A stretch of 64,000 bases of DNA from Acidobacteriota bacterium (lineage in GTDB: Bacteria > Acidobacteriota > Thermoanaerobaculia > Gp7-AA8), in contig JAJXWV010000033.1 in assembly GCA_021781455.1 (NCBI GenBank), positions 201,169 through 265,168 of the forward strand, given 5' to 3'. Made by a program: the position numbers and the translations under genes. Shown one piece after another: positions 8,644 through 51,020 of the stretch. The stretch's first letter is position 1. Every line of letters begins with the position of its first letter. The notes below the pieces were generated by a model that made no database searches, was not told where the DNA came from, and worked only from the letters and a program-made list of their open reading frames with translations.

Positions 8644-10680
8644 ATGCCGGCATTCGACTTCATGACCGTGGTCACGTTCGCGGCGCAGATCATCAGCGCC
8701 TCAGTGGTCGCGCTCCTGCTCTTCGGTTTCCAGCGGCAATACCGGAAGTCGTATCTCAAGCACTGGACCGCCGGCTGGACGGCCCTGGCGGTATACCACC
8801 TGGCCTCGTTCGCCGGACTTGTGCTGAGCTCCCAATACGGTGCATCGGCCGTCGATCCGAGACGGATCACCGCCGCCGTTCTTGCGGCCGTGGCCGGATA
8901 CGCGCAGATCGGATGGTTTCTCTTCGCGCCGTACGAGCTCGTGCGGCGTCGCCCCATCAGGATGATCGCGGCGCGGCGCATCCTGGCCGGCCTGGTCGTC
9001 TTCTCCCTGATCACGACCGTCCTCTTTCTCGACCGCAGCTCGTTCTCGATCACCCGGAACGTGGCCCGGGTCGGCGTTCACGCGTTCCTCGGTGGAATCG
9101 GATTCCTGATCGCTTCCATCGCCTTGTGGCGAGCGCGCAAGCGAAGCACCGGTATCGGCTTCACGGTGCTGAGCACCGCCTATTTCTTCTACGCCCTCGA
9201 GCAGCTGCAGTACGCGTTCCTGACGGTCTCCTGGGCTGTGGCCGGCGAAATTCCGCGCTACCTGAACGCGCTCGGCTATGCGGATTTCCTTCTGCAGTCG
9301 GTACTGGCCGTGGGCGTGATCGCCTGCCTGCTGGAAGACGAGCGTGAGGCCGCCGAGCTGGCCGGCGCGGAGATCGAGCACCTGGCCTATCACGACGCGC
9401 TGACCGGGCTGCCGAACCGGCCGCTGTTCATCGACCGGCTCATCGTCTCGATCGCTCAGTCGCAACGCTCCGGCCACAAGATCGCGGTGATGTTCGTCGA
9501 CCTCGACCGGCTGAAAGACGTCAACGATTCCCTCGGCCACTCCGTCGGCGACCAGCTCATCAAAATTGCGGCCGAGCGGGTACGCCGCTGTGTCCGCGAG
9601 GGAGACACGGTGGCCCGCTTCGGGGGCGACGAGTTCACGCTTCTCGTGCCGAAGATCGACTCCATCGAGGACGCTGCCAAGATCGCCAACAAGATCCTGG
9701 AAACGGTGAAGATCCCGATGATCGTCAACGACCGCGAGCTCGTGGCCACGGCCAGCATCGGCGTGAGCATCTACCCGAACGATGGACTCGATGCCGAGAC
9801 CCTGGTGCGCAACGCCGACACGGCCATGTACCGCGCCAAGGATTCAGGGCGGGACAACTACCACCTCTACGCCCCGGCCATGAACGCCCGCGCCCTCGAG
9901 CGCCTGGCGCTCGAAAACATGCTGCGCAAGGCCATCAGCAACGACGAGCTCGTCCTGCACTATCAACCGCTGATCGACACGAACAGCCGCTCGATGATCG
10001 GCACCGAAGCGCTGGTGCGCTGGAATCATCCGGAGCTGGGGCTGCTCTCGCCGGCACACTTCATCTCCGTGGCCGAGATTTCGGGACTGATCATCCCCAT
10101 CGGCGACTGGATCATCGACACGGCCATGCGCCAGTTGAAAGCCTGGCACCGGCGCGTGGGACCGGAGCTGCGCATGTCCATCAATCTTTCGGCGCGCCAG
10201 TTCCAGCAGCAGGACCTCGTCGAGCAGATCCGCGCCGCCCTCAACCGGCACGGCCTTCCCGCGCCCAGCATCGAGCTCGAGATCACCGAAAGCAACGCCA
10301 TGCAGAACGCGGAGAACACGATCCGCACCCTTCGGGAGCTGAAGAATCTCGGCGTCCGCATCGCCATGGACGACTTCGGTACCGGCTACTCCTCGCTCAA
10401 CTACCTCAAGCGCTTCCCGATCGACACGCTCAAGCTCGACCAGTCCTTCGTGCAGGGTGTTCTGACCGATTCGTCGGATGCGGCCATCGTCAGTGCGGTG
10501 ATCTCGATGGCCCACAGCCTCGACCTCGAGGTCGTCGCCGAAGGGGTGGAGACCGAGGAGCAGCTGGCCTTCCTGCATAAGCAGCGCTGCGACCGAATTC
10601 AGGGCTTCTACTTCAGCGCTCCCCTGGCGTCGGAGGACATGGAGCGCTTCCTCGTCGCCAGGAACGCCGCGGCCATGTAG
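8644..10680 (+). CDS. Membrane-anchored bifunctional GGDEF/EAL protein (diguanylate cyclase/phosphodiesterase) with N-terminal multi-TM sensor domain
   Basis: About 8 TM helices, a GGDEF domain (RFGGDEFTLL) and an EAL domain (EALVRW...DDFGTGYSSL...QGFYF). Confidence 0.85.
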   Translation: MPAFDFMTVVTFAAQIISASVVALLLFGFQRQYRKSYLKHWTAGWTALAVYHLASFAGLVLSSQYGASAVDPRRITAAVLAAVAGYAQIGWFLFAPYELVRRRPIRMIAARRILAGLVVFSLITTVLFLDRSSFSITRNVARVGVHAFLGGIGFLIASIALWRARKRSTGIGFTVLSTAYFFYALEQLQYAFLTVSWAVAGEIPRYLNALGYADFLLQSVLAVGVIACLLEDEREAAELAGAEIEHLAYHDALTGLPNRPLFIDRLIVSIAQSQRSGHKIAVMFVDLDRLKDVNDSLGHSVGDQLIKIAAERVRRCVREGDTVARFGGDEFTLLVPKIDSIEDAAKIANKILETVKIPMIVNDRELVATASIGVSIYPNDGLDAETLVRNADTAMYRAKDSGRDNYHLYAPAMNARALERLALENMLRKAISNDELVLHYQPLIDTNSRSMIGTEALVRWNHPELGLLSPAHFISVAEISGLIIPIGDWIIDTAMRQLKAWHRRVGPELRMSINLSARQFQQQDLVEQIRAALNRHGLPAPSIELEITESNAMQNAENTIRTLRELKNLGVRIAMDDFGTGYSSLNYLKRFPIDTLKLDQSFVQGVLTDSSDAAIVSAVISMAHSLDLEVVAEGVETEEQLAFLHKQRCDRIQGFYFSAPLASEDMERFLVARNAAAM

Positions 10681-10800
10681 GGACGCCGGGATGTAGGGAC
10701 GCGCAGCAGCGCGTCCGCGACTCCCGTTCCGAAAAGGCGGATCGGTCGGCGCACGACGACCAGAGCTGCGGACGCGCTGCTGCGCGTCCCTACAGTGTTC
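10681..10800. repeat. Family-C palindromic element: tagggacgcgcagcagcgcgtccgc ... gcggacgcgctgctgcgcgtcccta, with each arm itself palindromic
   Basis: Lies between convergent gene ends. Copies also at 29183-29268 and 60521-60632. Confidence 0.8.
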
Positions 10801-11428
10801 GCAGCACGGCACGGACGGGGCTGGCATCGCCTCCCCGGATCCGCAGCGGAAGCGCGATCAGCTCGTAGGAACCCTCTTCGACGCCGTCGAGCACCAACCC
10901 TTCCAGATTCGCCATGTCGTGGCGGGCCAGCGCCTGGTGCGCCTCGAGCGCCTTCGACTCGAAAGGATCGACCGAAGGCGTATCGATACCGACGAGGATC
11001 ACGCCGCGTCCGTGAAGCTCGTCGACGAGCTCCGGCGAGAGGCTGGCGAAGTCGTCGTTCCAGCGACGCGGATCGGGAAACGTGCCGGTATGGAACAGCA
11101 CACGCGGAGCATCGATCCTCTTTCCAGCGACGTGCCGCGGCATGATGCGCGCGGAACGGGCCACGTCGACACGGAAGACGTTGCAGCGCCCGACGAAAAA
11201 ATCGAGAGGCCTGGCCGCGACGTCCTCGCCGCCGGCGAGGTAGTGGCTCGGCGCGTCGGTATGCGCGCCGACGTGCAGGGTGGTGCGAATGTCCGACAGC
11301 GTGAGGTTCGCGCCGGCGCTCATGTCCAGATTCACGTTGCGCTCGAAGGGGGTATCGCCCGGCCAGACGCCGATCGAAGAGTCGACGACGGGCGAGATGT
11401 CGATCAACCGTGCGCTGTCGTCGCTCAT
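10790..11428 (-). CDS. Cyclase-family protein (kynurenine formamidase / arylformamidase-like)
   Basis: HVGAHTDAPSHY metal-binding motif of the KynB/cyclase family, about 213 aa. ATGA overlap with the upstream gene's stop indicates translational coupling. The track ORF's N-terminal extension is an artefact. Confidence 0.75.
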   Translation of the reverse strand: MSDDSARLIDISPVVDSSIGVWPGDTPFERNVNLDMSAGANLTLSDIRTTLHVGAHTDAPSHYLAGGEDVAARPLDFFVGRCNVFRVDVARSARIMPRHVAGKRIDAPRVLFHTGTFPDPRRWNDDFASLSPELVDELHGRGVILVGIDTPSVDPFESKALEAHQALARHDMANLEGLVLDGVEEGSYELIALPLRIRGGDASPVRAVLRTL

Positions 11429-12897
11429 GCCGAAGCGATCACCTTGAGCTCGACGGCGATGGGAGTCGGCAGCGAATCGACTCCCACGGTCGTGCGCGTC
11501 GGCTGGATGGCGCCGAGGAGCTCGCCGTAGGCGCGGTTGAAGCGGTCGAAGTCGCGCTTCATGTCGGTCAGGTAGACCGTCACGTCGAGGATCTTGTCGA
11601 GCGAGCTTCCGGCATCCTCCAGGATGACGCGTACGTTCTCGATGGCCGCCCGCGTCTGCACCTCGATGTCGTGGTCGATGATGCTGCCGGCGCCGTCGCG
11701 AACCACGCCGGGAATCTCGCCGCGGCCGGGCTGCCGCGGCCCGATGCCGGAGAGGAACAGGAATTCGCCGACTCTTCGCGCGTGCGGATAGGGACCGACC
11801 GGCTTCGCGGCGCGCGGCGTGACGAGGACATTCGAGTGTTGGGGCACAGACACTCTGGCCGGTGCTGTCTCCGGGTCCGGCACGGCACGGAGCGCCGGCG
11901 CGACGCGTCCGACGAGCCATTCCGGCTCGGGCGGATGTTCGTCATGCGAGTCCAGGGCGCCGGAGGCGGGAACGCGTTGCGATTCGGCGAGCACGTTGTG
12001 CGTCTCGAGGCCGCCCCCCTGCTCCATCGCGCCCACCGGGGCTTCGTCGAACTCCTTCTCCCAGGCGATCTCCTTGCGCGGATTCGGCGTCAGCTCGACG
12101 AGGGCACATCCGGTGCCCCAGACGGGCTGGTAGTCGACCACGCGCCCGTCGTAGAGGTTGTTTTCGCCGGCCAGTGCGGCCAGCCACCAGATGCCCTTGA
12201 ATCCCATGTCCGCGTTCGCTTCGCGGCCGAACTCGCGCGCCACCTGGGCCACGTCCTCGAGCCGTCCCTCGCCTAACATTTCCAGGATCTTGCGGTTCCA
12301 CTCGTCGTCTTTCTGCGATGAGATATGGTCGCAGGCCGGATCGATCTCGGCGACCTCGTAACGGTTGGACAGATTCGAGACCAGGACCACGGCGGTCCTG
12401 CGGCCGTAGCGCTCGATCGCTTCGCGCCCGAGCCGCCCTAACAGGCGCGTCTCGTCCCGTTCCGCGTAGATGTTGCAGGAGACGACCGAGGCGGGGATGG
12501 CGTTGCCCGGATTGAGCAGCTTCAGCGCGGTCACCGTGCCGGTGTCGATGGGAAATCCGTGGTAGTCGACCGTGGCCGCCTGCAGGCCGGCCTCTCTGGC
12601 GATCTCGCAGTAAAGCTTTCCGAACTGCGGGTCGATGCGGAAATCGTACGGGATCTCGCCGAACTCGTACCAGTTCTGGTCGACGAGCAGCCACCTGGGA
12701 TTCGGGTCGACCTGAAACAGGTGCCCGATCACGGAGAACCACTGCGTCGAGTACAGCAGCAGCAGTTCTGCGCCGCTGGCGGCGATCTCGCGGCCGATGG
12801 CTTCGTAGCTGGCTTTCAACGACGCCCAGCCAGAGTTGCGCTCGGGCGCAAGCAGGATGTGCGGCTGGCCCGCGGCAATGTAGAGCGTTTCGATCAC
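11425..12897 (-). CDS. Fusion protein: N-terminal LigB-type (class III extradiol dioxygenase-like) domain plus C-terminal RidA/YjgF (2-aminomuconate-deaminase-like) domain
   Basis: The N-terminal roughly 280 aa resemble MhpB/AmnA/AmnB-family subunits, but several canonical His ligands look substituted. The C-terminal roughly 125 aa are a textbook RidA fold (AKPVGPYPHARRVGEFLFLSGIGP...TTVGVDSLPTPIAVELKVIA). Confidence 0.6.
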   Translation of the reverse strand: MIETLYIAAGQPHILLAPERNSGWASLKASYEAIGREIAASGAELLLLYSTQWFSVIGHLFQVDPNPRWLLVDQNWYEFGEIPYDFRIDPQFGKLYCEIAREAGLQAATVDYHGFPIDTGTVTALKLLNPGNAIPASVVSCNIYAERDETRLLGRLGREAIERYGRRTAVVLVSNLSNRYEVAEIDPACDHISSQKDDEWNRKILEMLGEGRLEDVAQVAREFGREANADMGFKGIWWLAALAGENNLYDGRVVDYQPVWGTGCALVELTPNPRKEIAWEKEFDEAPVGAMEQGGGLETHNVLAESQRVPASGALDSHDEHPPEPEWLVGRVAPALRAVPDPETAPARVSVPQHSNVLVTPRAAKPVGPYPHARRVGEFLFLSGIGPRQPGRGEIPGVVRDGAGSIIDHDIEVQTRAAIENVRVILEDAGSSLDKILDVTVYLTDMKRDFDRFNRAYGELLGAIQPTRTTVGVDSLPTPIAVELKVIASA

Positions 12898-12907
12898 GTC
12901 TCGCCCT

Positions 12908-13365
12908 CTTTGAATTGAAAATTGAAAATTGAAAATTGAAAACGAAAAAAAACGAGAAATCAGTTTCGGCTGCGTCGAACGATCGTCGTCAGAATGGCAA
13001 TCAATTCGCTTGACTCTTCGATCAGCGGCTCAATCTTCTTGTGCTGCTCAGACAGCGATCGGTTCAAAATTCTGAGCCAGTACCTCGCCTCACGCGCTTC
13101 CTTGAGAGCGATTGTGCATTTAGAGATGAAATCCGCGCGACTTTGCGCCGCGTCAGCTTCCTCGAGATTTGCTCCCACAGAGCTCGCCGCATTGCTCCCC
13201 TGCGCACTGGTTCCGCGTAAAGCGGGTTCAGAGTGGTAGATGGAGCGGTGCAAGTCGACGACCGCACAGGCGAATTCAAACACACGTTCGCGCAGCTCCG
13301 AGCCCTTTCCGTCTTCGCGGTCTCGCACTCTCATGTCTTTTCAATTTTTCAATTTTCAATTTCGT
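12908..13365. mobile_element. Low-GC insertion carrying a four-helix-bundle protein gene, bounded by inverted arrays of GAAAATT heptamers (12908-12955 and 13338-13365)
   Basis: ttgaaaattgaaaattgaaaattgaaaa on the left and ttttcaatttttcaattttcaattt on the right. Composition is much more AT-rich than the flanking operon. Confidence 0.45.
12960..13334 (-). CDS. Four-helix-bundle protein (23S rRNA intervening-sequence protein family, TIGR02436-like)
   Basis: 124 aa helical protein with the conserved (F/Y)xL..Q..RA..S motif context typical of IVS/four-helix-bundle proteins. Atypical codon usage. Confidence 0.65.
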   Translation of the reverse strand: MRVRDREDGKGSELRERVFEFACAVVDLHRSIYHSEPALRGTSAQGSNAASSVGANLEEADAAQSRADFISKCTIALKEAREARYWLRILNRSLSEQHKKIEPLIEESSELIAILTTIVRRSRN

Positions 13366-13507
13366 TCGAGCCCCATCCTGAGGCTCTGCGCCAGATGGCA
13401 GAGCATCGCGCCGGCGGACATCCTTCCCCATTTCGGAACCATGTCATCGCGGATGCTTTTTACGCGATTGAGGATCTCGAGGCGGGCCGCGTCTTCCCAG
13501 AGGGTCT

Positions 13508-14989
13508 TCATAGTTTCACGCAGACGTTTTTCGGTTCCGTGAAGAAGTTCAGCGACTCGAATCCGCCCTCGCGGCCGACGCCGCTTTCTTTCATGCCGCC
13601 GAACGGGACGCGCAGGTCGCGCAGGAGCCAGCAGTTGATCCAGACCGTTCCGCTGTCGAGGGCGGCGGCGACGCGATGGGCGCGCCGCAGGTCGCGCGTC
13701 CACACCGTGGCGGAGAGTCCATAGCGCGTACCGTTGGCGAGCGCCAGCGCCTCCTCTTCGCTGTCGAACGGCGTCACCGTCACCACGGGCCCGAAAATCT
13801 CGTCCTGCAGGACGTCGGAGTCGCACGACAGGCCGGTGATGACGGTCGGCTCGACGAAGAATCCCGGGCGGTCGACCCTCTTTCCGCCCGTGTGGATCGT
13901 GCCGCCTTCCTTCTGCGCGATCTCCAAGTACCCGGAGACCTTCTGCAGGTGGGCTTCGCTGATCAACGCGCCGACGTCGGTCGTCTCGTCGAGCGGGTCG
14001 CCGACGCGAAGCCGCTTCGTCGCTTCGACAAAGCCGTCGAGGAAGGCATCGAAGACTGCCCTCTCCACGAAGATGCGCGATCCGCAAAGGCAGATCTCGC
14101 CCTGGTTCCAGAAGCTGGAGCGGATGGAGGTGGCGATCGCCTCCTCGAGATCGGCATCGGCGAAGAGGATGTTCGGGTTCTTTCCGCCGAGCTCCAGCGA
14201 AAGCTTCTTGAACATGGGGGCAGCGTTCGCGGCCACGCCCGCACCGGTCACCGTCCCGCCGGTGAACGAGAGCAGCGGCACATCGGGATGCCTGACCAGC
14301 GCACGGCCTGCCTTCTGGCCGTGTCCGTGGACGATGTTGATCACGCCCGGCGGGATTTCCGCCTCGAGCGAAAGCTCCGCGAGGCGATGGGCCGTGAGCG
14401 GAGTGAACTCGCTCGGTTTGGCGACGCACGTGTTTCCCGCGGCGATGGCCGGTGCGATCTTCCAGGAGAGCAGGTAGAGCGGCAGGTTCCACGGCGAGAT
14501 CAGGCCGGCCACGCCGACCGGCTGGCGCAGCGTGTAATTGAGCGCCGTTCCATCCGTGGAATGCGCCTCGGTGGACTGATGCAGGATCGCCGTGGCGAAG
14601 AAGCGGAAGTTCGCTGCGGCGCGCGGGATGTCGAGGCGCCGCGCCAGCGAAATCGGTTTCCCGCCGTCGCGCGCCTCCAGTCGCGCCAGCTCCTCGAGAT
14701 TGCCTTCGATCAGATCGCCGAGGCGGAGCAGCATCGCCGACCGTTCCGCGGCGGGCGTGTTGCTCCACGCCCTGAACGCCTGGCGGGCGGCGCTGACGGC
14801 GTTCTCGATGTCGCGCTCGTCGCTGTCCGGAACGGAGGCCATGACCTCGCCCGTGCCCGGCTCGATGTCCGGAATCGTCGTGCCCGAGGCAGCCGCTGTG
14901 AAACGACCGCCGATGAAGTTGCGAACGGCGACCGAAGACTGCGACCTGTTTCTCTTCGCTGCTTTGCTGCTCTCGTCCACATCAGTCAT
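13508..14989 (-). CDS. NAD(P)-dependent aldehyde dehydrogenase (2-hydroxy/2-aminomuconic semialdehyde dehydrogenase-like)
   Basis: ALDH catalytic motifs LELGGKNP and the catalytic Cys (EICLCGSR), plus an FTGGTVTG-type cofactor motif. 493 aa. Confidence 0.85.
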   Translation of the reverse strand: MTDVDESSKAAKRNRSQSSVAVRNFIGGRFTAAASGTTIPDIEPGTGEVMASVPDSDERDIENAVSAARQAFRAWSNTPAAERSAMLLRLGDLIEGNLEELARLEARDGGKPISLARRLDIPRAAANFRFFATAILHQSTEAHSTDGTALNYTLRQPVGVAGLISPWNLPLYLLSWKIAPAIAAGNTCVAKPSEFTPLTAHRLAELSLEAEIPPGVINIVHGHGQKAGRALVRHPDVPLLSFTGGTVTGAGVAANAAPMFKKLSLELGGKNPNILFADADLEEAIATSIRSSFWNQGEICLCGSRIFVERAVFDAFLDGFVEATKRLRVGDPLDETTDVGALISEAHLQKVSGYLEIAQKEGGTIHTGGKRVDRPGFFVEPTVITGLSCDSDVLQDEIFGPVVTVTPFDSEEEALALANGTRYGLSATVWTRDLRRAHRVAAALDSGTVWINCWLLRDLRVPFGGMKESGVGREGGFESLNFFTEPKNVCVKL

Positions 14990-14995
14990 GACAGA

Positions 14996-16073
14996 TCATC
15001 CTTGCTTCGCTTCGCCCGGAATGAACTCGGAAGGATCGAACTCCCATCGGTCGATATCCGGATCCCAGGAGTCCCACGGCATGATGGCGGCCATTCGGCC
15101 GCGCAACGCCGGCGGGATTGCCTCCGGGACGATGAACGCTTTCTGGCGGCGGAGCTTGTAAGGATTGCGAAACTCGAAACCGAGAACGCCGAGAATGTAA
15201 CGGGCCACGTACCAGGTGGCCTGCGGGTTCCAGCCGTGGGCGATCTTGACGACCACGCCCAGACCGTCGGGATAATCGGGATGCTGGACGGCCAGGCCGA
15301 GCAGGCCGTCGGCGCCTTCCTTGGCGATGACGCGGCCGCCACAGGCCTTGAGGATCGTCGAGTCGAGGCGGTTGAAGCCGCCAATCAGGTCGGGATGCGC
15401 GACCATCGCCTCCCAGATCCAATCGTCATCGTTTTCAATGACTAAATTTGCGAACAATTTAGCAAGATCCGTTACTGTCATCGAAATGGTCGGCAGGCCG
15501 CAGCCGTCCTTGGCCACCGTGCCCATCGGCCACTCGGCGCCGAGCACCCGGCGCAGGTAATCGACGTAGGCGAGGAAGAACGGGTGGTGCGGCCAGACGT
15601 ACCCGACGCGCGACCAGCCCTTGAGCATGCAGCCGCGCAGGATCGCGGCGTGCTCTCCGGAGCAGGTGTGGTACCAGCGCCGCGGCCGGCGCACCTGGCG
15701 GCCGAACTGCACGAGCGGCACGTCGTGGGGCGTCTGCATGAGCCCCCATTCGCCTTCCAGAAGGATCGAGCGGGCCACGCGCACGTGTTCCGTATCGCCG
15801 TTGTGCGAGGCGACGGCAATGGCCTTCTGCTCACTGTTGAGCGCGTTCGCGAGCTCGCCGGCGAATACCTTCATCATGACCGGCTTGACCATGGAGCGGC
15901 CGTAGACCTCGACATTGCCGCCGAACGAATGGAGAACGCTCCGTCCCGATACCCACGAGACGGCGCCGTGAATGGTGTTCTCGGCGATGCCGTTGCGCCG
16001 GTACTCGACGAGCGGCTGCCAGTTGGGCATCGGCCGCGCGAAGTTCGGCGGAAGGGACTCGTCAAAAGGCATG
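14996..16073 (-). CDS. Asparaginase-II family (PF06089-like) protein
   Basis: Motif series matching Rhizobium-type asparaginase II: GIAENTIHG, RSMVKP, ASHNGDTEHV, CSGEHAA, KDGCGLPT, KEGADG. Start chosen at MPFDESL; the upstream extension in the track ORF reads into a REP element. Confidence 0.6.
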
Positions 16074-16084
16074 TGCCGCAATTC

Positions 16085-16330
16085 TAGGACGATTGCGAAT
16101 TGCGAATTGCCCAACCCGTCACTCTGAGCCGGCGAAGCCGCGGGGGTGGGCGGCTGGGCGGAGCGGCGGAGCGCGGCGAAGAGTCTCTTACCGGGACGAT
16201 TGTTGGGCTGCAACTCGCGTGTGACAGCACCGGCTCAGAGTGACGGGCGCGCCCAGGACAGGCCGGAAAGCCTGTCCCACACGAAGGGCAGGCTCCCGGC
16301 TCTCACCGAAGAAAGTTCGGGGCCACGTCG
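16085..16330. repeat. Family-A composite REP/MITE-like element (modules gtcactctgagccggcg, gagtctcttaccgggacgattg, ggacaggc..gcctgtcc)
   Basis: Highly similar copies at 17371-17640, 29790-29945, 37073-37335, 40685-40805, 49100-49345 and 59925-60115. Fragments at 22385-22430 and 43885-43945. Confidence 0.8.
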
Positions 16331-16647
16331 CGCATGAAGGCCTCCATGTTCCGCATGACCCGCCTGGAATCGTGATTGTTGAAGTCGAACCAGAGCATGA
16401 GCCGGTCCTCGGGGTGAAATCGCTCGCGTACCTGCGCCGCCACGGCCGCGGCATCACCGATCAGCGCGTTGTTGGTGGCCCGCCGGACTTTCTCCTCGTC
16501 GAGCGTCCCCGAATTCCATGTTGTTTGAGTTTATCCCTTCGTGTAGGGCAGGCTTTCCAGCCTGCCCCGCACAAGTGGCGGGCCGGAAAAACCGCCCCAC
16601 ACGAGAAAATGCCCACCATGAACTGCAGAACCGAGAGAACCGAGAAA

Positions 16648-17382
16648 ATGCGACGAACCACACACGTCCTCGCGCTCTTCCTCCTTGCCGCCTGCGCGAC
16701 TGCGCCGGTCATCGTTCCGAACCAGTACGGATTGCGGGTCGTGCCGGACTATGCGACCTACCAGCGCCTGGTGCGGCTCGATCCATCGATGCGGCTTGTG
16801 GACGTCGAGCACGCCGTTCCCGGAATCGGCATCGACGTCCGCTACGCCACGTCGAACAACTTCATGCACCGGCCGCTGTACCCGATCGCGAAGGTGTTCC
16901 TCCGCGCGCCGGCCGCCCAGGCCCTCGCCGACGTCGAGCGCGAGCTCGCGCCGCAGGGCCTCGGTCTGAAGGTGTTCGACGGTTACCGTCCTTACCGGAT
17001 CACCGAAGCGATGTGGGAGCCCATCAAGGATCCGGATTTCGTCGCCGATCCGTCGAAAGGCTCACGCCACAACCGCGGAGCGGCCGTCGACCTCACGCTC
17101 GTCGATCTCCACACCGGCGACGAGATCGCCATGCCCACGCCGTATGACGACTTCACGCCGCGTGCGCGCCAGGACTTCAACGACCTGCCCGCGGACGTGA
17201 TCGCCAACCGCGCGAAGCTGCGCGAGGTCATGGTGCGCCACGGCTTCGACCCCCTGCCGTCCGAGTGGTGGCACTTCGACTACCACAGCTGGCAGAAGTT
17301 CGAGCTGATGGACGTGACGCTCGAGGAGCTGGCCGCGCACCAGATCGCAGAGGGCAGAGCGCAGGCCAACCCGTCATTCTGA
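16648..17382 (+). CDS. ddpX: D-alanyl-D-alanine dipeptidase (VanX/DdpX, peptidase M15D) lipoprotein
   Basis: Signal peptide with lipobox (LLAACATAP). Motifs SRHNRGAAVDLTLVD and EWWHFDY typical of VanX-family zinc dipeptidases. The last codons run into a REP element. Confidence 0.8.
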   Translation: MRRTTHVLALFLLAACATAPVIVPNQYGLRVVPDYATYQRLVRLDPSMRLVDVEHAVPGIGIDVRYATSNNFMHRPLYPIAKVFLRAPAAQALADVERELAPQGLGLKVFDGYRPYRITEAMWEPIKDPDFVADPSKGSRHNRGAAVDLTLVDLHTGDEIAMPTPYDDFTPRARQDFNDLPADVIANRAKLREVMVRHGFDPLPSEWWHFDYHSWQKFELMDVTLEELAAHQIAEGRAQANPSF

Positions 17383-17640
17383 GCCACGCGGTGTGGGACA
17401 GGCTTCCCAGCCTGTCCTCTTTCGGGTGCTGGAAAACCCTCGCCGCACGAGCGGTTGGGTGGAGCGGCGTTGCGCGGCGAAGAGTCTCCAGATTGCATGA
17501 TCGCGGTGAGCCTCCTCACCTGCGCAATCTTTTCCGACCTAACAATCGTCCCGGTAAGAGACTCTTCGCCGCGCTACGCCGCCGGGGGCGGCTCCGCCGG
17601 CTCAGAGTGACGGGTTAGCCCGCGATCTGCGATCTGCCCT
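17371..17640. repeat. Family-A composite REP element copy
   Basis: Shares gtcattctgagcc, ggacaggcttcccagcctgtcc and gagtctcttaccgggacgattg modules with the other copies. Confidence 0.8.
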
Positions 17641-24372: not shown

Positions 24373-24394
24373 GATCACATGTGAAGTGCTGAGT

Positions 24395-24465
24395 ACTGAG
24401 TGCTGAGTACTGAGTGCCGAGAACTCACGGGTCTTACTCAGTACTCAGCACTCAGTACTCAGCAC
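24395..24465. repeat. Inverted tandem array of CTGAGTA/CTGAGTG heptamers (hairpin)
   Basis: gtgctgagtactgagtgctgagtactgag ... ctcagtactcagcactcagtactcagcac. Confidence 0.8.
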
Positions 24466-24469
24466 TTCC

Positions 24470-27331: not shown

Positions 27332-28363
27332 TCACAGTTCGCTCAGGCGCTGCCGCAGGGCGCGCTCGTTCTCTCTGGCGTGTTCCAGCGCCGATTCCAG
27401 CGCGGCGACGATGGCGCGCGTGTTGGCGAGCAGCGACTCGATGCCGGCGCGCTCGGCCGCGGTATCGGCCGGCGCAGCGGCCGCGAACGGCTCCGCAACC
27501 GCAACGGGAGGATCGATCACCGGCGCCGCGCCGAACGGGTCTTCCTCGAGCGGCGGCGCCGCCGGCGCGAAGACGCTTTCGAACGCAGCAACGGGCACCG
27601 GGGCCGGCTGTGCGAATGCCGCCGGCGGCACCTCGACTGCCGGACGCCCCGCCGGTGAAGGTCTCGGCGCACCCTCGCGCATGGAAAGCTTCGGCGTGCC
27701 GGCCGAGGCGGAGGTCGCTCCCGCCTTCGCCGACATGTCGGGGGCGGTCAGCTCCGGCTCTTCGGCCAGTGTCGTGTCGACGTGGTTCTTGAGGTTGTCG
27801 AGAATTCGTCCCACGGCCGCACGCAGCGTCGCCGTGACTCCCACGCCGTTGATCGCGGCCGCCTCGATCACCGGCGCCGGGCCCGGCTCCAGATAGGCGG
27901 TCATGTCGTCGACGCTGTCGGTGTTGGGCAGATCGCGCTTGTTGTACTGGAACACCAGCGCCACTTTCTCCGGATCGATCCGGTTGAGGCGCAGGTTGGT
28001 CTTGAGGTTCTGCAGGCTGTCGACGTTCGACTCGCGCATCGACGCCTGCGAATCGGCGACGAAGACCACGCCGTCGGCGCCGCGAAGCACCAGCTTGCGC
28101 GTGGCGTCGTAGAACACCTGGCCGGGAACCGTGTACAGCTGCACGCGGACCTTCTGGCCGCCGATCGTGCCGAGCTCCATCGGCATGAAGTCGAAGAAGA
28201 GGGTGCGGTCCGTCTCCGTCGACATCGAGATCATCTTGCCCTTGTTCTCAAGCTTCGGATTGGCGTAGACCTTTTCCAGGTTCGTCGTCTTCCCGCACAG
28301 GCCGGGCCCGTAGTACACGAGCTTGACCGTGACTTCGTTGATCGCCTTGTTGATCAGGACCAT
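27332..28363 (-). CDS. MglA-family Ras-like small GTPase with a long Ala/Pro-rich C-terminal extension ending in a coiled coil
   Basis: N-terminus VKLVYYGPGLCGKTTNL plus G3/G4 motifs (TVPGQ, QYNKRD) closely match MglA. The protein is 343 aa versus about 195 aa for MglA. Confidence 0.8.
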   Translation of the reverse strand: MVLINKAINEVTVKLVYYGPGLCGKTTNLEKVYANPKLENKGKMISMSTETDRTLFFDFMPMELGTIGGQKVRVQLYTVPGQVFYDATRKLVLRGADGVVFVADSQASMRESNVDSLQNLKTNLRLNRIDPEKVALVFQYNKRDLPNTDSVDDMTAYLEPGPAPVIEAAAINGVGVTATLRAAVGRILDNLKNHVDTTLAEEPELTAPDMSAKAGATSASAGTPKLSMREGAPRPSPAGRPAVEVPPAAFAQPAPVPVAAFESVFAPAAPPLEEDPFGAAPVIDPPVAVAEPFAAAAPADTAAERAGIESLLANTRAIVAALESALEHARENERALRQRLSEL

Positions 28364-29182: not shown

Positions 29183-29268
29183 GCGTGCAGGGACGCGCTG
29201 CTGCGCGTCCGCAGCCCTCGTTTCGGGGCAGATGAACGGAGTTGCGGACGCGCTGCTGCGCGTCCCTC
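29183..29268. repeat. Family-C palindromic element copy
   Basis: cagggacgcgctgctgcgcgtccgc ... gcggacgcgctgctgcgcgtccct. Confidence 0.8.
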
Positions 29269-29278
29269 CTTGGCGCCC

Positions 29279-29770
29279 ATGGCACAATTGCCGGCGATGC
29301 TGACGTTGCTCGCGCTGTTCCTCGCCACGGCCTTTCCGTCCAATTCACAGACTTCATGGATGCGTCCCGAGTCGTTCCACCTGGTCATCGGCATGAGCCG
29401 TGACGAGACGGTGCAGACGCTGCAGAAAGCCGGATGGAAGCCGCAGAAGGGTGACGACGCCGCACACCTCATCGTCGACTACACGACCACCCGGTCGCTG
29501 ACGCTCGAGTTCCACAACAACCGGCTGCGTTCCGTTCGCTTCGAGCTCTTCACCGTTCTTCACGAGATCGGCGGCGCCTTCGAGGAAGAGAAGGCCTATC
29601 TCCGGAAGACCTTCGGCGAGCCGAAGCACGTGAAATCGAAATCGGTGCTGATCTACGAATCGACCCTGCCGAACGTGATGGCCGTGGTCAACGACGATCC
29701 GAAGTCGTCCAACGGCAGGAAAGGACTCGGCGTGCTGGTGGTCCGTTACTACGACCCCGTGGCGAAGTGA
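29279..29770 (+). CDS. Hypothetical exported protein
   Basis: Signal peptide (MAQLPAMLTLLALFLATAFPS), good GC3, no recognised domain. Confidence 0.5.
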   Translation: MAQLPAMLTLLALFLATAFPSNSQTSWMRPESFHLVIGMSRDETVQTLQKAGWKPQKGDDAAHLIVDYTTTRSLTLEFHNNRLRSVRFELFTVLHEIGGAFEEEKAYLRKTFGEPKHVKSKSVLIYESTLPNVMAVVNDDPKSSNGRKGLGVLVVRYYDPVAK

Positions 29771-29789
29771 CGCCGCGCCCGACCGCTAC

Positions 29790-29945
29790 GTCATCCTGAG
29801 GCCGCGCAACCGCGCCCCCCGTCACTTCAGAGTGACGGAGCTCGCCGTTCCACCCAACCGCACTTGCGGGGCGGGCTTTTGTGCCCGCCAGGGAGGGCAG
29901 GCTGGAAAGCCTGCCCCACACCGACCGGCTCAGAGTGACGGGCGG
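29790..29945. repeat. Family-A REP element copy
   Basis: gtcacttcagagtgacgg / ggcaggctggaaagcctgcc / ggctcagagtgacggg modules. Confidence 0.75.
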
Positions 29946-29951
29946 GTCACG

Positions 29952-31892
29952 TTACTGCGCACCGCCGCTGATCGTCGCGGTTGCGCCCGTCTCGACGGCA
30001 GGCTTCCTGGCGATGTACTTCGCCGTCGGCCCCTCGTACACGTACACGCCTTCGCCAAGGGTCCCGACGTAGGTGCGGTCGGGGACGAAAGGATCAGGCG
30101 CGATCGCAGTCACTTCGGTGCTGCGACCGGGGAGCGGGAGAGTCACCCAGTCCGGCTCGTGCGGGTTGGCGACGAGCAGGTCGCGCTGGCCGCGCGAGGT
30201 CAGGTAGAGCAGATGTTCCGAGCTTCGGGCCACGCCGAACACCGAGGCGTACTGGGCGTCGGGCGCTTCGACGGGAATCCACCGCCGCTCATGGTTGATC
30301 CTGCCGGCCTTCACGCCCTGAGCTCCGGCCACGAACAGCACCTGGCCTCCATCGCCGTCGCGGATGGCCAGAGTGCGCCCGCGGGCAGGAGCATCGGCGA
30401 TGGTCAGCCACTCCCGGCCGTCGAAGACGGTCAGTCCGCTGTCCGTCAGCGCGTAAAGAGCCGGGCCGCGACCTAACATCCCGACGGCCAGGTCCACCGT
30501 TCGGTCGTCTTCCCCCGCAAGCCGGTACCACGTCTTTCCCGAGTCACGGGAGGTGAAGACGCCCTCCGACGTCGCCGCGAAAGATCGCACGGCCGAAAAC
30601 CGCAGGATCTTGTCCACGCGCAGTGGAAGATTGAACGGAGCGCTCTGGGCCCAGGTCACGTCGTCGCTGCTCGTGAAGAATCCGCGTTCCGTGCCGGCCA
30701 CGAACTTCACGTCGCTGTGGGGGTCGGGCTCGATCGAAAGGGAGAGCACCTCGGGCAGCTTGGTCGAGTTCGTCTTCTCCCAGGTCCGGCCGCCGTCGTC
30801 CGAGCGGTAGATGCCGGACGCTGCTCCGCCATACGCGACCGCGGCATACGCCCGGCCCTTCACCACCGGGTCCGCGACGACCGTCGTGATCTTCAGGTCG
30901 TACAAACCCGTCGAGGAGCGCGTAAAGGTCTTCGCGTTGTCCTCGGAGACGTAAACGCCGTCGCCCTCGGTTCCGATGACGATCCGGTTCGGCCGCTGCG
31001 GTTGCAGCGCGATCTCGTTGATCACGAGGCCCGGATCCGACACCGCGTACCACGACTTGCCCCGATCGTCGGAGCGATACAGCCCGGCTACCGATCCCGC
31101 GTACAGCTCGTCGGGGTTGCAGGGATTCACTTCGATCGCGTGGATGCGCCGGTTGTCGAATCCGTCGCGATAGCGCGTCCACTTATCGCCGCCGTTGGTG
31201 CTGTTGTAAACCCAGCCGCACGTGGCCACCCAGACGCTGTCCGGCTCATTGGGCTCGATCAGAATCGAGAACATGTCCGTGTCGAGGACCATCCCGTTGT
31301 TGATCAGCTTCCACGTCTTGCCGCCGTCGAGCGTGCGCTGCCCCTGGCGCCATGTGCCGACGTAAATCCGGTTGTTCGTGCGAGGGTCGATGGCCACCGA
31401 CTCGACGTTGATCTGGTTCGAGATCTTCTGCCACGAATCGCCGCCGTCGCGACTGCGATAGACACCCGTCAACCCACCCGCAACCACGAAATTCGCGTCA
31501 TGCGGATCGACAGCCAGGGCACGCACAGAAAAATCCTCGAGCCCCGAGTCGCGGCGCGTCCACGTCTTCCCCTGATCGTCGGAGACTGCGATGACGCCAC
31601 CGCCCCACAAACCCCAGCACGCCGCCCACAGCCGGTGCGTCCGATCGACAGCGAGGCTGTCCACGACGTAACCGGGAAATGGAATACTGCCGAACGGATT
31701 GCGCCAGCTCTTCGCGCCGTCGGTCGAGACATAGAGCTCGCCGCTGCTCGTGCCGAGGTAGTAGGTGTCGGGTTCGACCGGGTCGATGATCAGCGCGCGG
31801 ACGTCGGCGCCATAGAGCGCGGCCCGCCGCCACTGTGCGAACACAGGAGCCGAGATGAGGAGAATCGCGAGAAGAATGAGGACTTTACGCAT
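29952..31892 (-). CDS. Exported BNR/Asp-box repeat beta-propeller protein (Sortilin/Ycf48/sialidase-like)
   Basis: Signal peptide and many S-x-D-x-G-x-T-W Asp-box repeats (SDDQGKTW, SRDGGDSW, TLDGGKTW, STNGGDKW, SDDRGKSW, SDDGGRTW, SRDSGKTW). Confidence 0.7.
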   Translation of the reverse strand: MRKVLILLAILLISAPVFAQWRRAALYGADVRALIIDPVEPDTYYLGTSSGELYVSTDGAKSWRNPFGSIPFPGYVVDSLAVDRTHRLWAACWGLWGGGVIAVSDDQGKTWTRRDSGLEDFSVRALAVDPHDANFVVAGGLTGVYRSRDGGDSWQKISNQINVESVAIDPRTNNRIYVGTWRQGQRTLDGGKTWKLINNGMVLDTDMFSILIEPNEPDSVWVATCGWVYNSTNGGDKWTRYRDGFDNRRIHAIEVNPCNPDELYAGSVAGLYRSDDRGKSWYAVSDPGLVINEIALQPQRPNRIVIGTEGDGVYVSEDNAKTFTRSSTGLYDLKITTVVADPVVKGRAYAAVAYGGAASGIYRSDDGGRTWEKTNSTKLPEVLSLSIEPDPHSDVKFVAGTERGFFTSSDDVTWAQSAPFNLPLRVDKILRFSAVRSFAATSEGVFTSRDSGKTWYRLAGEDDRTVDLAVGMLGRGPALYALTDSGLTVFDGREWLTIADAPARGRTLAIRDGDGGQVLFVAGAQGVKAGRINHERRWIPVEAPDAQYASVFGVARSSEHLLYLTSRGQRDLLVANPHEPDWVTLPLPGRSTEVTAIAPDPFVPDRTYVGTLGEGVYVYEGPTAKYIARKPAVETGATATISGGAQ

Positions 31893-31940
31893 GCCCGACC
31901 AATCACAGGAGAATGTACCACGCCAACTGAAGCAAACGGG

Positions 31941-32010
31941 CCGCCAGCGCTGAGTCCTGAGTGCTGAGTAGAACGCGACTCAGGACTCAGGACTCAGGAC
32001 TCAGGACTTC
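31941..32010. repeat. Inverted tandem array of CTGAGTC/CTGAGTG heptamers
   Basis: gctgagtcctgagtgctgagta ... gactcaggactcaggactcaggactcaggac. Confidence 0.75.
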
Positions 32011-32044
32011 CCGCTGCCCGCTCGCCTGCTATCCTACAAACGAG

Positions 32045-32962
32045 ATGAACGAACTCCGTACCTGCGTCTTTCCTTGTGCCGGCTTCGGCACACGCTTCTT
32101 TCCGGCGACGAAAGTGATCCCGAAGGAGATGCTTCCGCTCGTCGACAAACCGATCCTCCAGTACGGGATCGAAGAGGCGGTCGCTTCGGGGCTCGACAAG
32201 CTCGTCATCGTCACTTCGAAGGGAAAGGACTCGATTCTCGACCACTTCGACCGGACGGCCGAGCTCGAGCGGTCGCTGCAGGAGCGGAAGAAGACCGACC
32301 TGCTCGAGGAAGTCGAAGCGGTCAGCACGATGGTCGACCTCATCTCGGTGCGCCAGAAGGAAGCGCTGGGGCTCGGTCACGCAGTGCTGATGGCACGGGA
32401 TGCGGTGGGGCCGAACCCGTTCGCCGTGATCCTTCCGGATGACGTGATCCTCGCCGATGAGCCATGCCTTCTGCAGATGCGCCACGTCTTCGAGGAGACA
32501 GGACGTCCCGTCGTGGCGTTGATGGAGGTTCCGCCCGAGGAGACCTCGCGCTACGGAATCGTCGGCGGCGACCAACTCGGCAACCGCCGCTTCCGCATCC
32601 GCGACATGGTCGAGAAGCCGAAGATCAATCCCCCGTCACGCTACGCGATCATCGGCCGCTACATCCTTCCGCCGGAGATCTTTCCCGTGCTCGAAAAGAC
32701 CGAACGCGGTTCGGGCGGCGAGATCCAGCTCACCGATGCTCTGCGCGAGCTGGTGCGCACCGGCGACTTCTACGGTTATGTCTTCGACGGGAAGCGCTAC
32801 GACGCCGGCGAAAAGCTCGGCTATCTCAAGGCCACGGTCGACTACGCCCTCAAGCACCCGCAGATCGGGCCGGAATTCCGCGCCTATCTGAAAGCGGTTT
32901 TCGGCGGCAACGGGAAAGCGGATGAAGCCGCGCCGCGATCCACGCCGCGCGCACGAACGTGA
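32045..32962 (+). CDS. galU: UTP--glucose-1-phosphate uridylyltransferase
   Basis: N-terminus LRTCVFPCAGFGTRFFPATKVIPKEMLP, and motifs VEKP and GRYIL. Confidence 0.9.
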   Translation: MNELRTCVFPCAGFGTRFFPATKVIPKEMLPLVDKPILQYGIEEAVASGLDKLVIVTSKGKDSILDHFDRTAELERSLQERKKTDLLEEVEAVSTMVDLISVRQKEALGLGHAVLMARDAVGPNPFAVILPDDVILADEPCLLQMRHVFEETGRPVVALMEVPPEETSRYGIVGGDQLGNRRFRIRDMVEKPKINPPSRYAIIGRYILPPEIFPVLEKTERGSGGEIQLTDALRELVRTGDFYGYVFDGKRYDAGEKLGYLKATVDYALKHPQIGPEFRAYLKAVFGGNGKADEAAPRSTPRART

Positions 32963-33225
32963 GCGGCGAGAAGGAGCTGGAGATCCTCGATCTGCCCGGT
33001 GACATCCGGGCTCTGATCGCAGAATGCGAGGTGACCGGCACCCGCACGCGCTTTCTGCGGAACGGCCGTCCCGTCGCGGTGCTGGTCTCGCATGACGAAT
33101 ATCTGGCGTTGCGCGAGACGGTCGAGATCGTGAGAGACGGACAGCTCCTGATGAAAGTCACGGCGGCCGAGGAACAGGTCAAGCGGGGCGCGATGCTGTT
33201 GGTGGAGGACCTGTTCGAGACTTGA
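32959..33225 (+). CDS. Type II antitoxin, Phd/YefM family
   Basis: GTG start overlapping the galU stop. Core RPVAVLVSHDEYLALRETVEI. Confidence 0.65.
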   Translation: MSGEKELEILDLPGDIRALIAECEVTGTRTRFLRNGRPVAVLVSHDEYLALRETVEIVRDGQLLMKVTAAEEQVKRGAMLLVEDLFET

Positions 33226-33325
33226 TGGATGGTTGCGCGGTTCCGGGGTTGCGCGGATCCGCGGTTTCCTCGTCGTCAGAAAGTTCACACGCGCAACCTG
33301 GTCATCACCGCGCAACCGCGCCACC
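33226..33325. repeat. GGTTGCGCGG-type inverted repeat element inserted between the antitoxin and toxin genes
   Basis: ggttgcgcggttccggggttgcgcgg ... ccgcgcaacc ... ccgcgcaaccgcg. Confidence 0.7.
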
Positions 33326-33329
33326 TGTC

Positions 33330-33590
33330 ATGTGGAACGACCGTCTTCGAATCGCAGAGTCCGTGGAAGCGGAGTGGAAGGCCCTGGCTGCCGATGAGCG
33401 GGACGTGGTACGAAACGCGCTGCGCACCATCGACGATGATCCGATTGCCGGTGCGCCGCTGTTCGATCCGCTGGCCGGCCTGTGGAGCTATCGCGCCGGA
33501 GGTCTGCGGATTCTCTACCGCATCATGGCGGAGGCGCGCTTCGTGGTGATCCTTTCGATTTCGCGGGTCGAGGAAGGGAAGAAGAGTTGA
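33330..33590 (+). CDS. Type II toxin, RelE/ParE family
   Basis: 86 aa with the C-terminal pattern WSYRAGGLRILYRI...FVVILSISRV typical of RelE/ParE toxins. Confidence 0.65.
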   Translation: MWNDRLRIAESVEAEWKALAADERDVVRNALRTIDDDPIAGAPLFDPLAGLWSYRAGGLRILYRIMAEARFVVILSISRVEEGKKS

Positions 33591-34165: not shown

Positions 34166-34266
34166 AATCGAGACGGGTAGCGGGTAGCGGGTAGCGGGTA
34201 GCGGGTAGGAAACACGGCCTACCCGGTACACGCTACCCGCTACACGCTACCCGCTACCCGCTACCC
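34166..34266. repeat. Inverted tandem arrays of GGGTAGC heptamers (hairpin)
   Basis: gggtagc x4 ... ctacccggtacacgctacccgctacacgctacccgctacccgctacccgc. Confidence 0.8.
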
Positions 34267-34286
34267 GCTGTCTTCTTGGGGGGCAC

Positions 34287-35824: not shown

Positions 35825-35960
35825 GAGTGCTGAGTACTGAGTGCTGAGTACTGAGTGCTGAGTACTGAGTGCTGAGTACTGAGTGCTGAGTACTGAGTGG
35901 TCAGTACTGAAGCCTCGGTTTTTCCCACTCAGTACTCAGCACTCAGTACTCAGCACTTCG
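35825..35960. repeat. Inverted tandem arrays of CTGAGTA/CTGAGTG heptamers (about 9 units per arm)
   Basis: Direct reading. The longest example of this hairpin class in the window. Confidence 0.85.
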
Positions 35961-44880: not shown

Positions 44881-44965
44881 ATCTGAAGTGCTGAGTACTG
44901 AGTGCTGAGTACTGAGTGTCCGACTTGCCCACTCAGTACTCAGCACTCAGCACTCAGTACTGCCT
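44881..44965. repeat. Inverted arrays of CTGAGTA/CTGAGTG heptamers between sufB and sufC
   Basis: The track ORF for sufC reads through this as MGKSDTQYSALSTQHF. Confidence 0.85.
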
Positions 44966-51002: not shown

Positions 51003-51020
51003 GCAGACAGGATAAGACAA

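Follow-up and report, generated by a model that had tools for sequence, protein, structure and literature searches.

The question raised by the locus described here is whether a set of enzymes typical of aromatic-amine degradation is able to cleave an aromatic ring. The locus lies in a 64 kb stretch, here called the window, of a contig from a metagenome-assembled genome of Thermoanaerobaculia (Acidobacteriota); statements of absence for this genome apply within these 64 kb. The initial annotation of the window proposed a catabolic operon for the meta-cleavage of aminoaromatics, consisting of four translationally coupled genes: an asparaginase-II-like protein, an aldehyde dehydrogenase (ALDH), a fusion of a LigB-family domain to a RidA domain, and a cyclase. 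All four are present on the minus strand and match the corresponding Pfam families (Table 1). The enzyme families do fit such a pathway, but the operon is not self-sufficient: amnB, the gene for the catalytic β subunit of the ring-cleaving dioxygenase, is absent, and only a stump is left of a gene for a luciferase-like monooxygenase (LLM). We consider it likely that the window holds the remnant of a conserved operon for 2-aminophenol cleavage that is missing its oxygenases, and that the fusion is an orphan α subunit joined to a deaminase.

The fusion and the enzymes around it

The fusion protein matches PF02900 (E = 1e-12, residues 19–245) and PF01042 (E = 1e-23, residues 363–489). An AlphaFold model built from 31 sequences has two confident domains, residues 1–278 and 355–490, connected by some 76 residues that are disordered in the model. 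Orthologues differ in the length of this linker, and their full proteins span 441 to 508 residues.

The initial annotation had likened the N-terminal domain to AmnA or AmnB, and it is the α subunits (AmnA/CnbCa) that are its nearest solved relatives. Searches with phmmer gave E-values of 5e-54 for 7TXY_A, 2e-49 for 3VSG_A and 5e-48 for 8IHG_B, and only 7e-24 to 5e-20 for the solved β subunits. Foldseek likewise placed the α chains first, with template-modelling (TM) scores of 0.84–0.87 against 0.76–0.78 for the β chains. In the Comamonas enzyme (CtAPD), iron is bound by His13, His62 and Glu251 of the β subunit, and Tyr129 and His195 belong to the second sphere (PMC5291488). Aligned with MAFFT, the fusion has G, Q, T, N and D at the positions of His13, His62, Tyr129, His195 and Glu251, and the solved α subunits have G, Q, T, G, D (3VSG_A) and G, Q, T, S, D (7TXY_A). 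The His-His-Glu iron triad and the catalytic histidine are replaced not only here but in 74–80 of 80 orthologous fusions, while the full H/H/Y/H/E set is kept in all 64 of the separate AmnB-like partners encoded beside orthologous fusions. Because all three iron ligands and both second-sphere residues are replaced as in the solved α subunits, the alignment identifies the LigB domain as a non-catalytic, predicted iron-free, AmnA-type α subunit of 2-aminophenol 1,6-dioxygenase. The ligand set of a catalytic LigB-family extradiol dioxygenase (LigB, AmnB or HpaD) is not found in it. The substituted histidines and the possible α-type subunit had both been anticipated in the initial annotation; the new catalytic function that it offered as an alternative is contradicted by the ligand analysis, and to annotate the domain as a dioxygenase is wrong.

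These observations bear directly on the view that the four genes form a self-contained meta-cleavage operon, in which either the fusion itself cleaves the ring or its LigB domain has acquired a new catalytic activity. The genes are indeed co-directional and of fitting enzyme families, and the fusion and the cyclase gene are coupled by an ATGA overlap. The ligand positions are nevertheless altered exactly as in the iron-free subunits, the domain is nearer to α than to β subunits in both sequence and fold, and relatives supply a separate catalytic AmnB with its ligands intact. In addition, AmnA and AmnB of the characterised ARO enzyme are each insoluble when expressed alone (PMC10470539). We regard a self-contained operon as very improbable.

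The C-terminal domain has as its best solved relative the 2-aminomuconate deaminase 6IZH of Pseudomonas sp. AP-3 (E = 4e-25), in keeping with its description as AmnD/NbaF-like. The two superimpose with a TM score of 0.88 and a root-mean-square deviation of 1.8 Å at 39–40% identity (Foldseek), and share an insertion of about 12 residues that is absent in the canonical RidA 2DYY. The NCBIfam Rid models score below their own cutoffs on this domain. By sequence and predicted fold it is shown to be of the RidA-type 2-aminomuconate deaminase family. A fusion of a LigB-family domain to a RidA domain had been thought unusual, but more than 3,000 homologues are found across at least six phyla; these proteins, currently named ‘Rid family hydrolase’ or ‘AmnA’, are α-subunit::deaminase fusions. 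Such an arrangement would physically tether step 1 of the unstable aminomuconate branch to step 3.

The ALDH is closest in the Protein Data Bank (PDB) to 2-aminomuconate semialdehyde dehydrogenases (AMSDHs; 4U3W, E = 7e-140; 7BZV, 1e-135; 4I1W, 2e-134), which make up seven of its eight top matches (7e-140 to 3e-133). Its motifs ‘...LAR(R)LDIPRAAANFR’ and ‘RDLRvPFGG’ align with those of the AMSDHs, where they surround Arg120 and Arg464, which we take to be substrate-binding residues. The NCBIfam models for HpaE (573.5 bits, cutoff 638) and for 2-hydroxymuconic semialdehyde dehydrogenase (556.6 bits, cutoff 693) both score below cutoff, and no model named for AMSDH is among the best 25 of 43 NCBIfam matches. 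The comparison with solved enzymes shows an ALDH of the predicted 2-aminomuconate-semialdehyde dehydrogenase type, and its likeness to AmnC/NbaE is borne out.

The cyclase, described as KynB-like, matches the KynB model TIGR03035 over its full length (1–206 of 206) with 217.1 bits (cutoff 223.05), and its best PDB matches are all KynB (4COB, E = 3.5e-50; 4COG; 4CO9). The last gene is shown by these matches to encode a predicted KynB-type formamidase (kynurenine formamidase). No tryptophan 2,3-dioxygenase (TDO) is encoded in the window, so that the genomic association of KynB with TDO is not seen here.

The asparaginase-like protein scores 162 bits against PF06089 (cutoff 25), is a distant match to ReAIV of Rhizobium etli (8CLY, E = 4e-22 by phmmer) and has no match in the NCBIfam library. 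The residues Arg47, Ser48, Lys51, Ser80, Lys263, Cys135, His139, Asp187 and Cys189 (ReAV numbering) are conserved in the window protein as well as in all of 50 orthologues. In ReAV these include the Ser-Lys catalytic set, and Arg47 binds the α-carboxylate of the substrate (PMC12292245). The Cys-Lys-Cys zinc site of class 3 L-asparaginases is incomplete: Cys135 and Cys189 are present, but the zinc ligand Lys138 is replaced by Glu (CSGKH to CSGEH) in the window protein and in 48 of the 50 orthologues. With all catalytic residues retained, this substitution is the signature of what appears to be a distinct subfamily. Compared with ReAIV and ReAV (8CLY, 7OS3), the protein is thus alike in family, in both Ser-Lys tandems, in Arg47 and in two of three zinc ligands, and differs in the distance of the match, in Glu138 and in its gene context, which is an aromatic-amine operon rather than asparagine utilisation. 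We propose that it is a β-aspartyl ester or amide hydrolase, and the gene context suggests a substituted β-aspartyl substrate rather than free L-asparagine.

An orthologue that is 69% identical occurs in a Sericytochromatia genome (locus L168, 9001–10020) beside a riboflavin kinase/FAD synthetase gene, with no other member of the cluster within 9 kb of it.

The conserved cluster and the missing oxygenases

For comparison, the fusion was used to retrieve 80 genome loci and AmnB to retrieve 80 metagenome loci, whose genes were tabulated by blastp (loci are numbered with the prefix L). The consensus order is LLM, asparaginase-like protein, ALDH, [membrane protein], AmnB, [four-helix-bundle protein], fusion, [KynB], with optional members in brackets. 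The fullest form is [TDO]-[SDR]-LLM-asparaginase-like-AmnC (ALDH)-AmnB-AmnA::deaminase-[KynB], where SDR is a short-chain dehydrogenase/reductase; it emerges from about 150 related loci of at least six phyla and is uncharacterised. Beyond Acidobacteriota, the cluster is found in Bdellovibrionota/Oligoflexia, marine Poseidoniales archaea, Myxococcota and Planctomycetota. Among the 81 loci that the fusion query recovered, amnB is the immediate upstream neighbour of the fusion in 59 of 69. Where at least 6 kb of upstream flank was available, AmnB and the ALDH were each present in 45 of 52 loci, and the asparaginase-like protein and the LLM each in 43 of 52. KynB follows the fusion in 37 of 70 loci. 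The separate LigB protein of the relatives (for example L006, 8739–9632) is a true AmnB, matching CnbCb (3VSG_B) with E = 4e-130 and 8IHG_A with 1e-124. The asparaginase-like orthologues are 66–86% identical across phyla and as conserved as AmnB; first supposed to have no obvious role, this protein is matched by few others of the cluster in how tightly it is conserved, and a specific role can be proposed for it (below).

A TDO gene (PF03301, E = 1e-52 to 1e-61) is operonic or adjacent in seven clusters (L064, L079, L080, L084, L085, L086 and L169), and an orthologous SDR often lies between TDO and LLM. The SDR orthologues are 47–57% identical across phyla. Outside Thermoanaerobaculia, the SDR gene was observed just upstream of the LLM at L064 4517–5392, L070 208–1014, L085 4533–5285, L167 6999–7778 and L169 5476–6234. 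That the SDR might be a flavin reductase partner is raised here as a question only.

In the window both oxygenase genes are absent in cis: the LLM has been cut to 63 codons and amnB has been deleted outright. The initial annotation missed both, as it did the two open reading frames (ORFs) in the 610 bp between ALDH and fusion. The LLM stump matches residues 329–391 of the L006 LLM with 76% identity (tblastn, E = 6e-26), and no other LLM fragment rises above noise in the window at very relaxed thresholds. Searching the 64 kb at thresholds as loose as E ≤ 20 revealed neither amnB nor a fragment of it, so the α subunit has no catalytic β partner encoded alongside it. The window is the only one of about 160 loci to have the asparaginase-like gene, the ALDH and the fusion but no amnB. 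It spans both chromosomal sites at which relatives keep amnB, namely beside the fusion and beside homologues of the genes at 29.2–35.8 kb, and both are empty.

In the place of amnB is an ORF of 51 codons, orf51, which overlaps the ALDH stop codon by ATGA. It matches residues 1–48 of proteins of about 147 residues (P0241: 65% identity, E = 2e-13), which in turn hit PF07606/PF12867, and by this similarity it is the first 48 or so codons, the N-terminal third, of a DUF1569/DinB-family gene. None of the other loci examined has a member of this family at the site. The ORF abuts a cassette containing a four-helix-bundle gene, and because its stop codon lies inside the heptamer array that borders that cassette, orf51 marks a deletion junction. 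Some relatives (e.g. L006) have a membrane protein gene of about 400 codons between ALDH and amnB; orf51 has no similarity to it and is not its remnant.

Because an α subunit is present without its catalytic β subunit and the LLM is lost, the cluster as encoded in the 64 kb is shown, by its predicted gene products, to be unable to cleave the aromatic ring, barring partner genes at other sites of the genome. For this genome, annotation should not count the locus as a functional aromatic-amine pathway.

Several observations weigh against a loss of function in this genome. The four remaining genes are full length, and at sites invariant in 60–115 orthologues they have 0, 1, 0 and 0 private substitutions. 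The LLM stump is itself undecayed, and keeps all 16 residues that are invariant in that segment among 20 orthologues. Since the surviving genes and the stump are undecayed, the deletions must be very recent, or else selection is still maintained by partners acting in trans; the test for relaxed selection, based on private substitutions at otherwise invariant sites, gave no signal and does not separate recent loss from complementation in trans. Finally, relatives tolerate a split operon. In several Thermoanaerobaculia the operon is divided exactly between amnB and the fusion, with the fusion side seen at L027, L029, L010 and L038 and the amnB side at L120, L135 and L149: the latter three carry LLM, asparaginase-like gene, ALDH and amnB without the fusion, and loci of the L027 type carry the fusion and kynB without the rest. 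The flanks of the split loci match the window genes at 27344–28363 (an MglA-like GTPase) and 29237–35810, which fits an inversion of about 16 kb relative to the order of genes in the window. A lone amnB occurs in many loci, in some of them beside a homologue of the window gene at 29952–31892.

The loci with only the fusion and kynB (L010, L025–L030, L035, L038, L081) were considered as further genomes with an orphan α subunit. This was rejected, as their flanks fit the same 16-kb inversion with its breakpoint between amnB and the fusion, and their amnB probably lies just past the fetched flank.

Since relatives tolerate a split operon, partners encoded in trans are a realistic proposition. On this account the cluster is still functional, with amnB and a full-length LLM encoded outside the window and the copies in situ deleted as redundant. 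The lack of any relaxed-constraint signal would agree with it, as would the split arrangements of the relatives. Yet what remains of the LLM here still sits, truncated, at its ancestral position and is not a relocated gene, both syntenic homes of amnB are inside the window and are empty, and the combination of asparaginase-like gene, ALDH and fusion without amnB has no precedent among the other loci. We therefore regard a cluster kept functional by redundant copies elsewhere as rather unlikely. For this genome, recent loss of the pathway is the reading that we narrowly favour, as being somewhat likelier than complementation by unlinked genes, for which we hold a lesser but real expectation.

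A possible tryptophan route in intact clusters

By family membership, the locus resembles the upper part of the amn/cnb pathway for 2-aminophenol. The known examples are the amnBACD/cnbCaCbD genes of Pseudomonas sp. AP-3, P. pseudoalcaligenes JS45 and Comamonas CNB-1 (3VSG–3VSJ, 8IHG, 6IZH) and the actinobacterial ARO microcompartment locus (7TXY). The likeness extends to an α subunit without iron ligands, an AMSDH-type ALDH and a RidA-type deaminase with the same insertion, and in the relatives, although not in the window, to the AmnB that matches CnbCb. The window cluster differs in that its α subunit is covalently fused to the deaminase, and in having no lower-pathway genes (equivalents of amnEFGH). 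The described amn, cnb and ARO loci lack KynB, the class-3-asparaginase-like hydrolase, LLM, SDR and TDO, of which the window has the first two and relatives add the rest. The conserved cluster is thus, as judged by its enzyme families, a putative variant of aminophenol/kynurenine catabolism.

The second comparison is with the bacterial kynurenine pathway to 2-aminomuconate (kynA/kynB with nbaC-F-type genes), reportedly described by Kurnasov in 2003 and by Colabroy and Begley in 2005. The relatives' clusters share its entry, TDO and KynB, and its exit, an AMSDH and a RidA-type deaminase. They differ in what stands between: a LigB-type AmnBA, an LLM and an asparaginase-like hydrolase, in the place of kynurenine 3-monooxygenase (KMO), kynureninase, the cupin 3-hydroxyanthranilate dioxygenase (HAAO) and 2-amino-3-carboxymuconate-6-semialdehyde decarboxylase (ACMSD). 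None of these last four was seen in any cluster inspected.

As TDO and KynB deliver kynurenine, and 2-aminophenol is the compound that AmnB/AmnA, AmnC and the RidA domain process, it is the LLM and the asparaginase-like enzyme that must bridge the gap between the two compounds. On this basis we tentatively suggest that the intact cluster may encode an undescribed route of tryptophan catabolism, in which kynurenine would be split by a flavin-dependent Baeyer-Villiger oxidation and asparaginase-like hydrolysis rather than by kynureninase; the window would then be a snapshot of its loss. TDO would convert tryptophan to N-formylkynurenine and KynB would convert this to kynurenine, an aryl ketone. 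The LLM would insert oxygen into kynurenine in a Baeyer-Villiger reaction, giving the 2-aminophenyl ester of the β-carboxyl of aspartate or, after an O-to-N acyl shift, N4-(2-hydroxyphenyl)asparagine. From either, the asparaginase-like hydrolase would release L-aspartate and 2-aminophenol. AmnB/AmnA would then yield 2-aminomuconic semialdehyde, the ALDH 2-aminomuconate, and the RidA domain 4-oxalocrotonate and ammonia.

This route gives a role to both of the conserved enzymes that are otherwise unexplained. The asparaginase-like enzyme could split a β-aspartyl product because its Ser-Lys set and the α-carboxylate-binding Arg47 are conserved, and the closeness of the relatives' AmnB to characterised β subunits of 2-aminophenol dioxygenase speaks for a route with 2-aminophenol as its intermediate. 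Catabolism of a ketone through an ester, by a Baeyer-Villiger enzyme and a hydrolase, is exemplified by the 4-hydroxyacetophenone monooxygenase and esterase of P. fluorescens ACB. LLMs are type II Baeyer-Villiger enzymes (PMC4631483), and one of them carries out a ketone-to-ester step in the catabolism of progesterone (PMC12239570). The systems of 3,6-diketocamphane monooxygenase and of the progesterone pdc LLM described in those two papers resemble the present cluster in having an LLM beside a hydrolase and a ketone as substrate, and are cited by analogy only; in the present case the ester formed from kynurenine would set free the phenol on which the next enzyme acts.

There are also a number of points that count against the proposed route, whose only foundations are gene context and family chemistry. 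The LLM is not close to any characterised enzyme (best PDB match E = 0.014 with a single sequence, and 4e-05, to a luciferase α chain, with a profile of 20 sequences) and gives only weak, partial matches to MsnO8-family and F420-LLM models of NCBIfam; it may instead be F420-dependent or a hydroxylase. The conserved SDR has no place in the scheme, lower-pathway genes such as that for 4-oxalocrotonate decarboxylase are absent from the cluster, and the window KynB falls 6 bits under its equivalog cutoff. We found no account in the literature of a route from kynurenine to 2-aminophenol, of a Baeyer-Villiger reaction of kynurenine or of this combination of genes, which is weak evidence as subscription journals were thinly covered.

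Other chemistry can be envisaged for the same genes: the LLM would hydroxylate kynurenine or anthranilate, AmnB/AmnA would cleave 3-hydroxykynurenine or 3-hydroxyanthranilate, and the asparaginase-like enzyme would hydrolyse an amide further downstream. TDO and KynB place the input at kynurenine in this scheme too, both of the proposed ring-cleavage substrates are ortho-aminophenols by established chemistry, and the LLM is not typed by its sequence. Set against this, the clusters inspected show no homologue of kynureninase, KMO, HAAO or ACMSD, aromatic hydroxylation is atypical of LLMs, and an enzyme conserved as strongly as AmnB is left without a specific substrate. We regard this scheme as improbable, and retain the Baeyer-Villiger route as the tentative proposal.

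The amn/cnb genes for 2-aminophenol are known mainly from degraders of nitroaromatics and are textbook examples of the degradation of xenobiotics (nitrobenzene, chloronitrobenzene). If the proposed route is correct, the amn meta-cleavage genes would have in tryptophan the natural source of 2-aminophenol that has long been sought for them. Clusters framed by TDO and KynB in six phyla, and always containing the two unexplained enzymes, make the natural role of amn-type genes directly testable, as the conversion of kynurenine to 2-aminophenol and aspartate. The authors of the ARO microcompartment study concluded that its physiological substrate is ‘likely an upstream precursor’ of 2-aminophenol (PMC10470539).

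Layout of the locus and repeat elements

All genes of the cluster are read on the minus strand, in the 5′ to 3′ order LLM stump, palindromic repeat, asparaginase-like gene, ALDH, orf51, four-helix-bundle gene, fusion, kynB and a 32-bp inverted repeat. The same gene order, with 100% identical proteins, recurs on contigs of NCBI, ENA and Logan samples that were assembled independently (L001–L004), and the arrangement is therefore not an assembly artefact.

Table 1. Positions in the 64 kb window of the genes, domains and repeats of the cluster.
Feature	Position	Strand	Remarks
Luciferase-like monooxygenase (LLM), 3′ stump	16321..16509	-	last 63 codons; no start codon; in-frame stop before it
Palindromic repeat element, one copy	16113..16290		between LLM stump and start of asparaginase-like gene
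Class-3-asparaginase-like Ser-Lys hydrolase (putative)	14996..16072	-	358 aa; PF06089, E = 2e-47
AmnC/NbaE-like 2-aminomuconate-6-semialdehyde dehydrogenase (ALDH; predicted)	13508..14989	-	493 aa; PF00171, E = 7e-172
orf51, truncated DUF1569/DinB-family fragment (by similarity)	13356..13511	-	51 codons; in place of amnB
Heptamer array, upstream arm	13335..13363		ATTGAAA-type units on operon strand; brackets four-helix-bundle gene
Four-helix-bundle gene (23S rRNA intervening-sequence protein family)	12960..13334	-	124 aa; inserted cassette
Heptamer array, downstream arm	12913..12953		inverted partner of 13335..13363
LigB + Ribonuc_L-PSP fusion, whole gene	11425..12897	-	490 aa; GTG start
Fusion residues 1–278, predicted AmnA-type iron-free α subunit domain	12064..12897	-	PDB and Foldseek matches; ligand pattern
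Fusion residues 279–354, linker	11836..12063	-	predicted disordered; AlphaFold confidence (pLDDT) 22–31
Fusion residues 355–490 and stop codon, predicted RidA-family 2-aminomuconate deaminase domain	11425..11835	-	6IZH match
KynB-like arylformamidase (cyclase; predicted)	10790..11428	-	212 aa; PF04199, E = 2e-16
32-bp inverted repeat	10692..10794		94% complementary; 39-nt loop; begins at kynB stop codon

The coupling of the four genes claimed in the initial annotation holds in part. An ATGA at 11428–11425, read in the sequence, overlaps the fusion stop with the kynB start, and kynB is translationally coupled to the fusion through it. A spacer of 6 nt separates the asparaginase-like stop from the ALDH start. 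The four genes are not contiguous, however, since the two ORFs stand between ALDH and fusion. The 32-bp inverted repeat at the kynB stop probably marks the 3′ end of the transcript. A consensus terminator scan of 10600–16750 did not flag it, and the scan for promoters and terminators was uninformative.

The four-helix-bundle protein belongs to the family of 23S rRNA intervening-sequence proteins (PF05635, E = 3e-15, 57 bits against a cutoff of 33.8; TIGR02436, 73.1 bits against 24). Its gene occupies the junction of amnB and fusion in 17 of the 52 relatives with enough upstream flank, all of them Thermoanaerobaculia. In loci without the gene the amnB stop overlaps the fusion start, and it is for this reason identified as an inserted cassette; it is no part of the pathway chemistry. 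The two arrays that flank it in the window (Table 1) pair in the minimum-free-energy fold. About 30 Thermoanaerobaculia loci carry the gene, and in all of them it is enclosed by inverted arrays of 4–5 tandem 7-nt units. The unit differs by lineage (AATTGAA, AATTGAG, GATTGAG or AATTGTG), with matching changes in the opposite array. This pattern reads as compensatory covariation of a predicted stem of about 28–35 bp around the whole ORF. The arrangement is reminiscent of the rRNA intervening sequences processed by RNase III, where the ORF is likewise of this family and its flanks pair into a long stem around it, but here the cassette would sit in the mRNA of a protein-coding operon and its stem is made of tandem heptamers that covary between lineages.

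A palindromic element of about 130–180 bp is present in four copies, at 16113–16290, 17391–17616 (inverted), ~37208–37240 and ~59984–60016, and the window contains 4 occurrences of its 33-nt core where 0 would be expected. The gene of an M15 (VanX-like) peptidase is flanked by two inverted copies, and one of them lies between the LLM stump and the asparaginase-like gene. This layout suggests a repeat-mediated deletion.

The automatic call for the M15 peptidase (16240–17382, plus strand) overlaps the LLM stump on the opposite strand. At 336 residues it exceeds the 220–227 of relatives by about 110 codons, and translation probably begins near 16681, with the signal peptide MRRTTHVLALF.

Tandem 7-nt units (some of 8–10 nt), in up to 15 copies and grouped into paired inverted arrays, are also abundant in intergenic DNA and appear as a genome-wide feature of the organism. 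They are found at 7076–7143/7443–7472, 24385–24466, 31950–32008, 34174–34269, 35825–35957, 39907–40130, 42650–42751, 44887–44961, 51020–51370 and 52604–52680. The two arrays of a pair can fold into a long, near-perfect hairpin, and the sequence of the unit changes from one site to the next.

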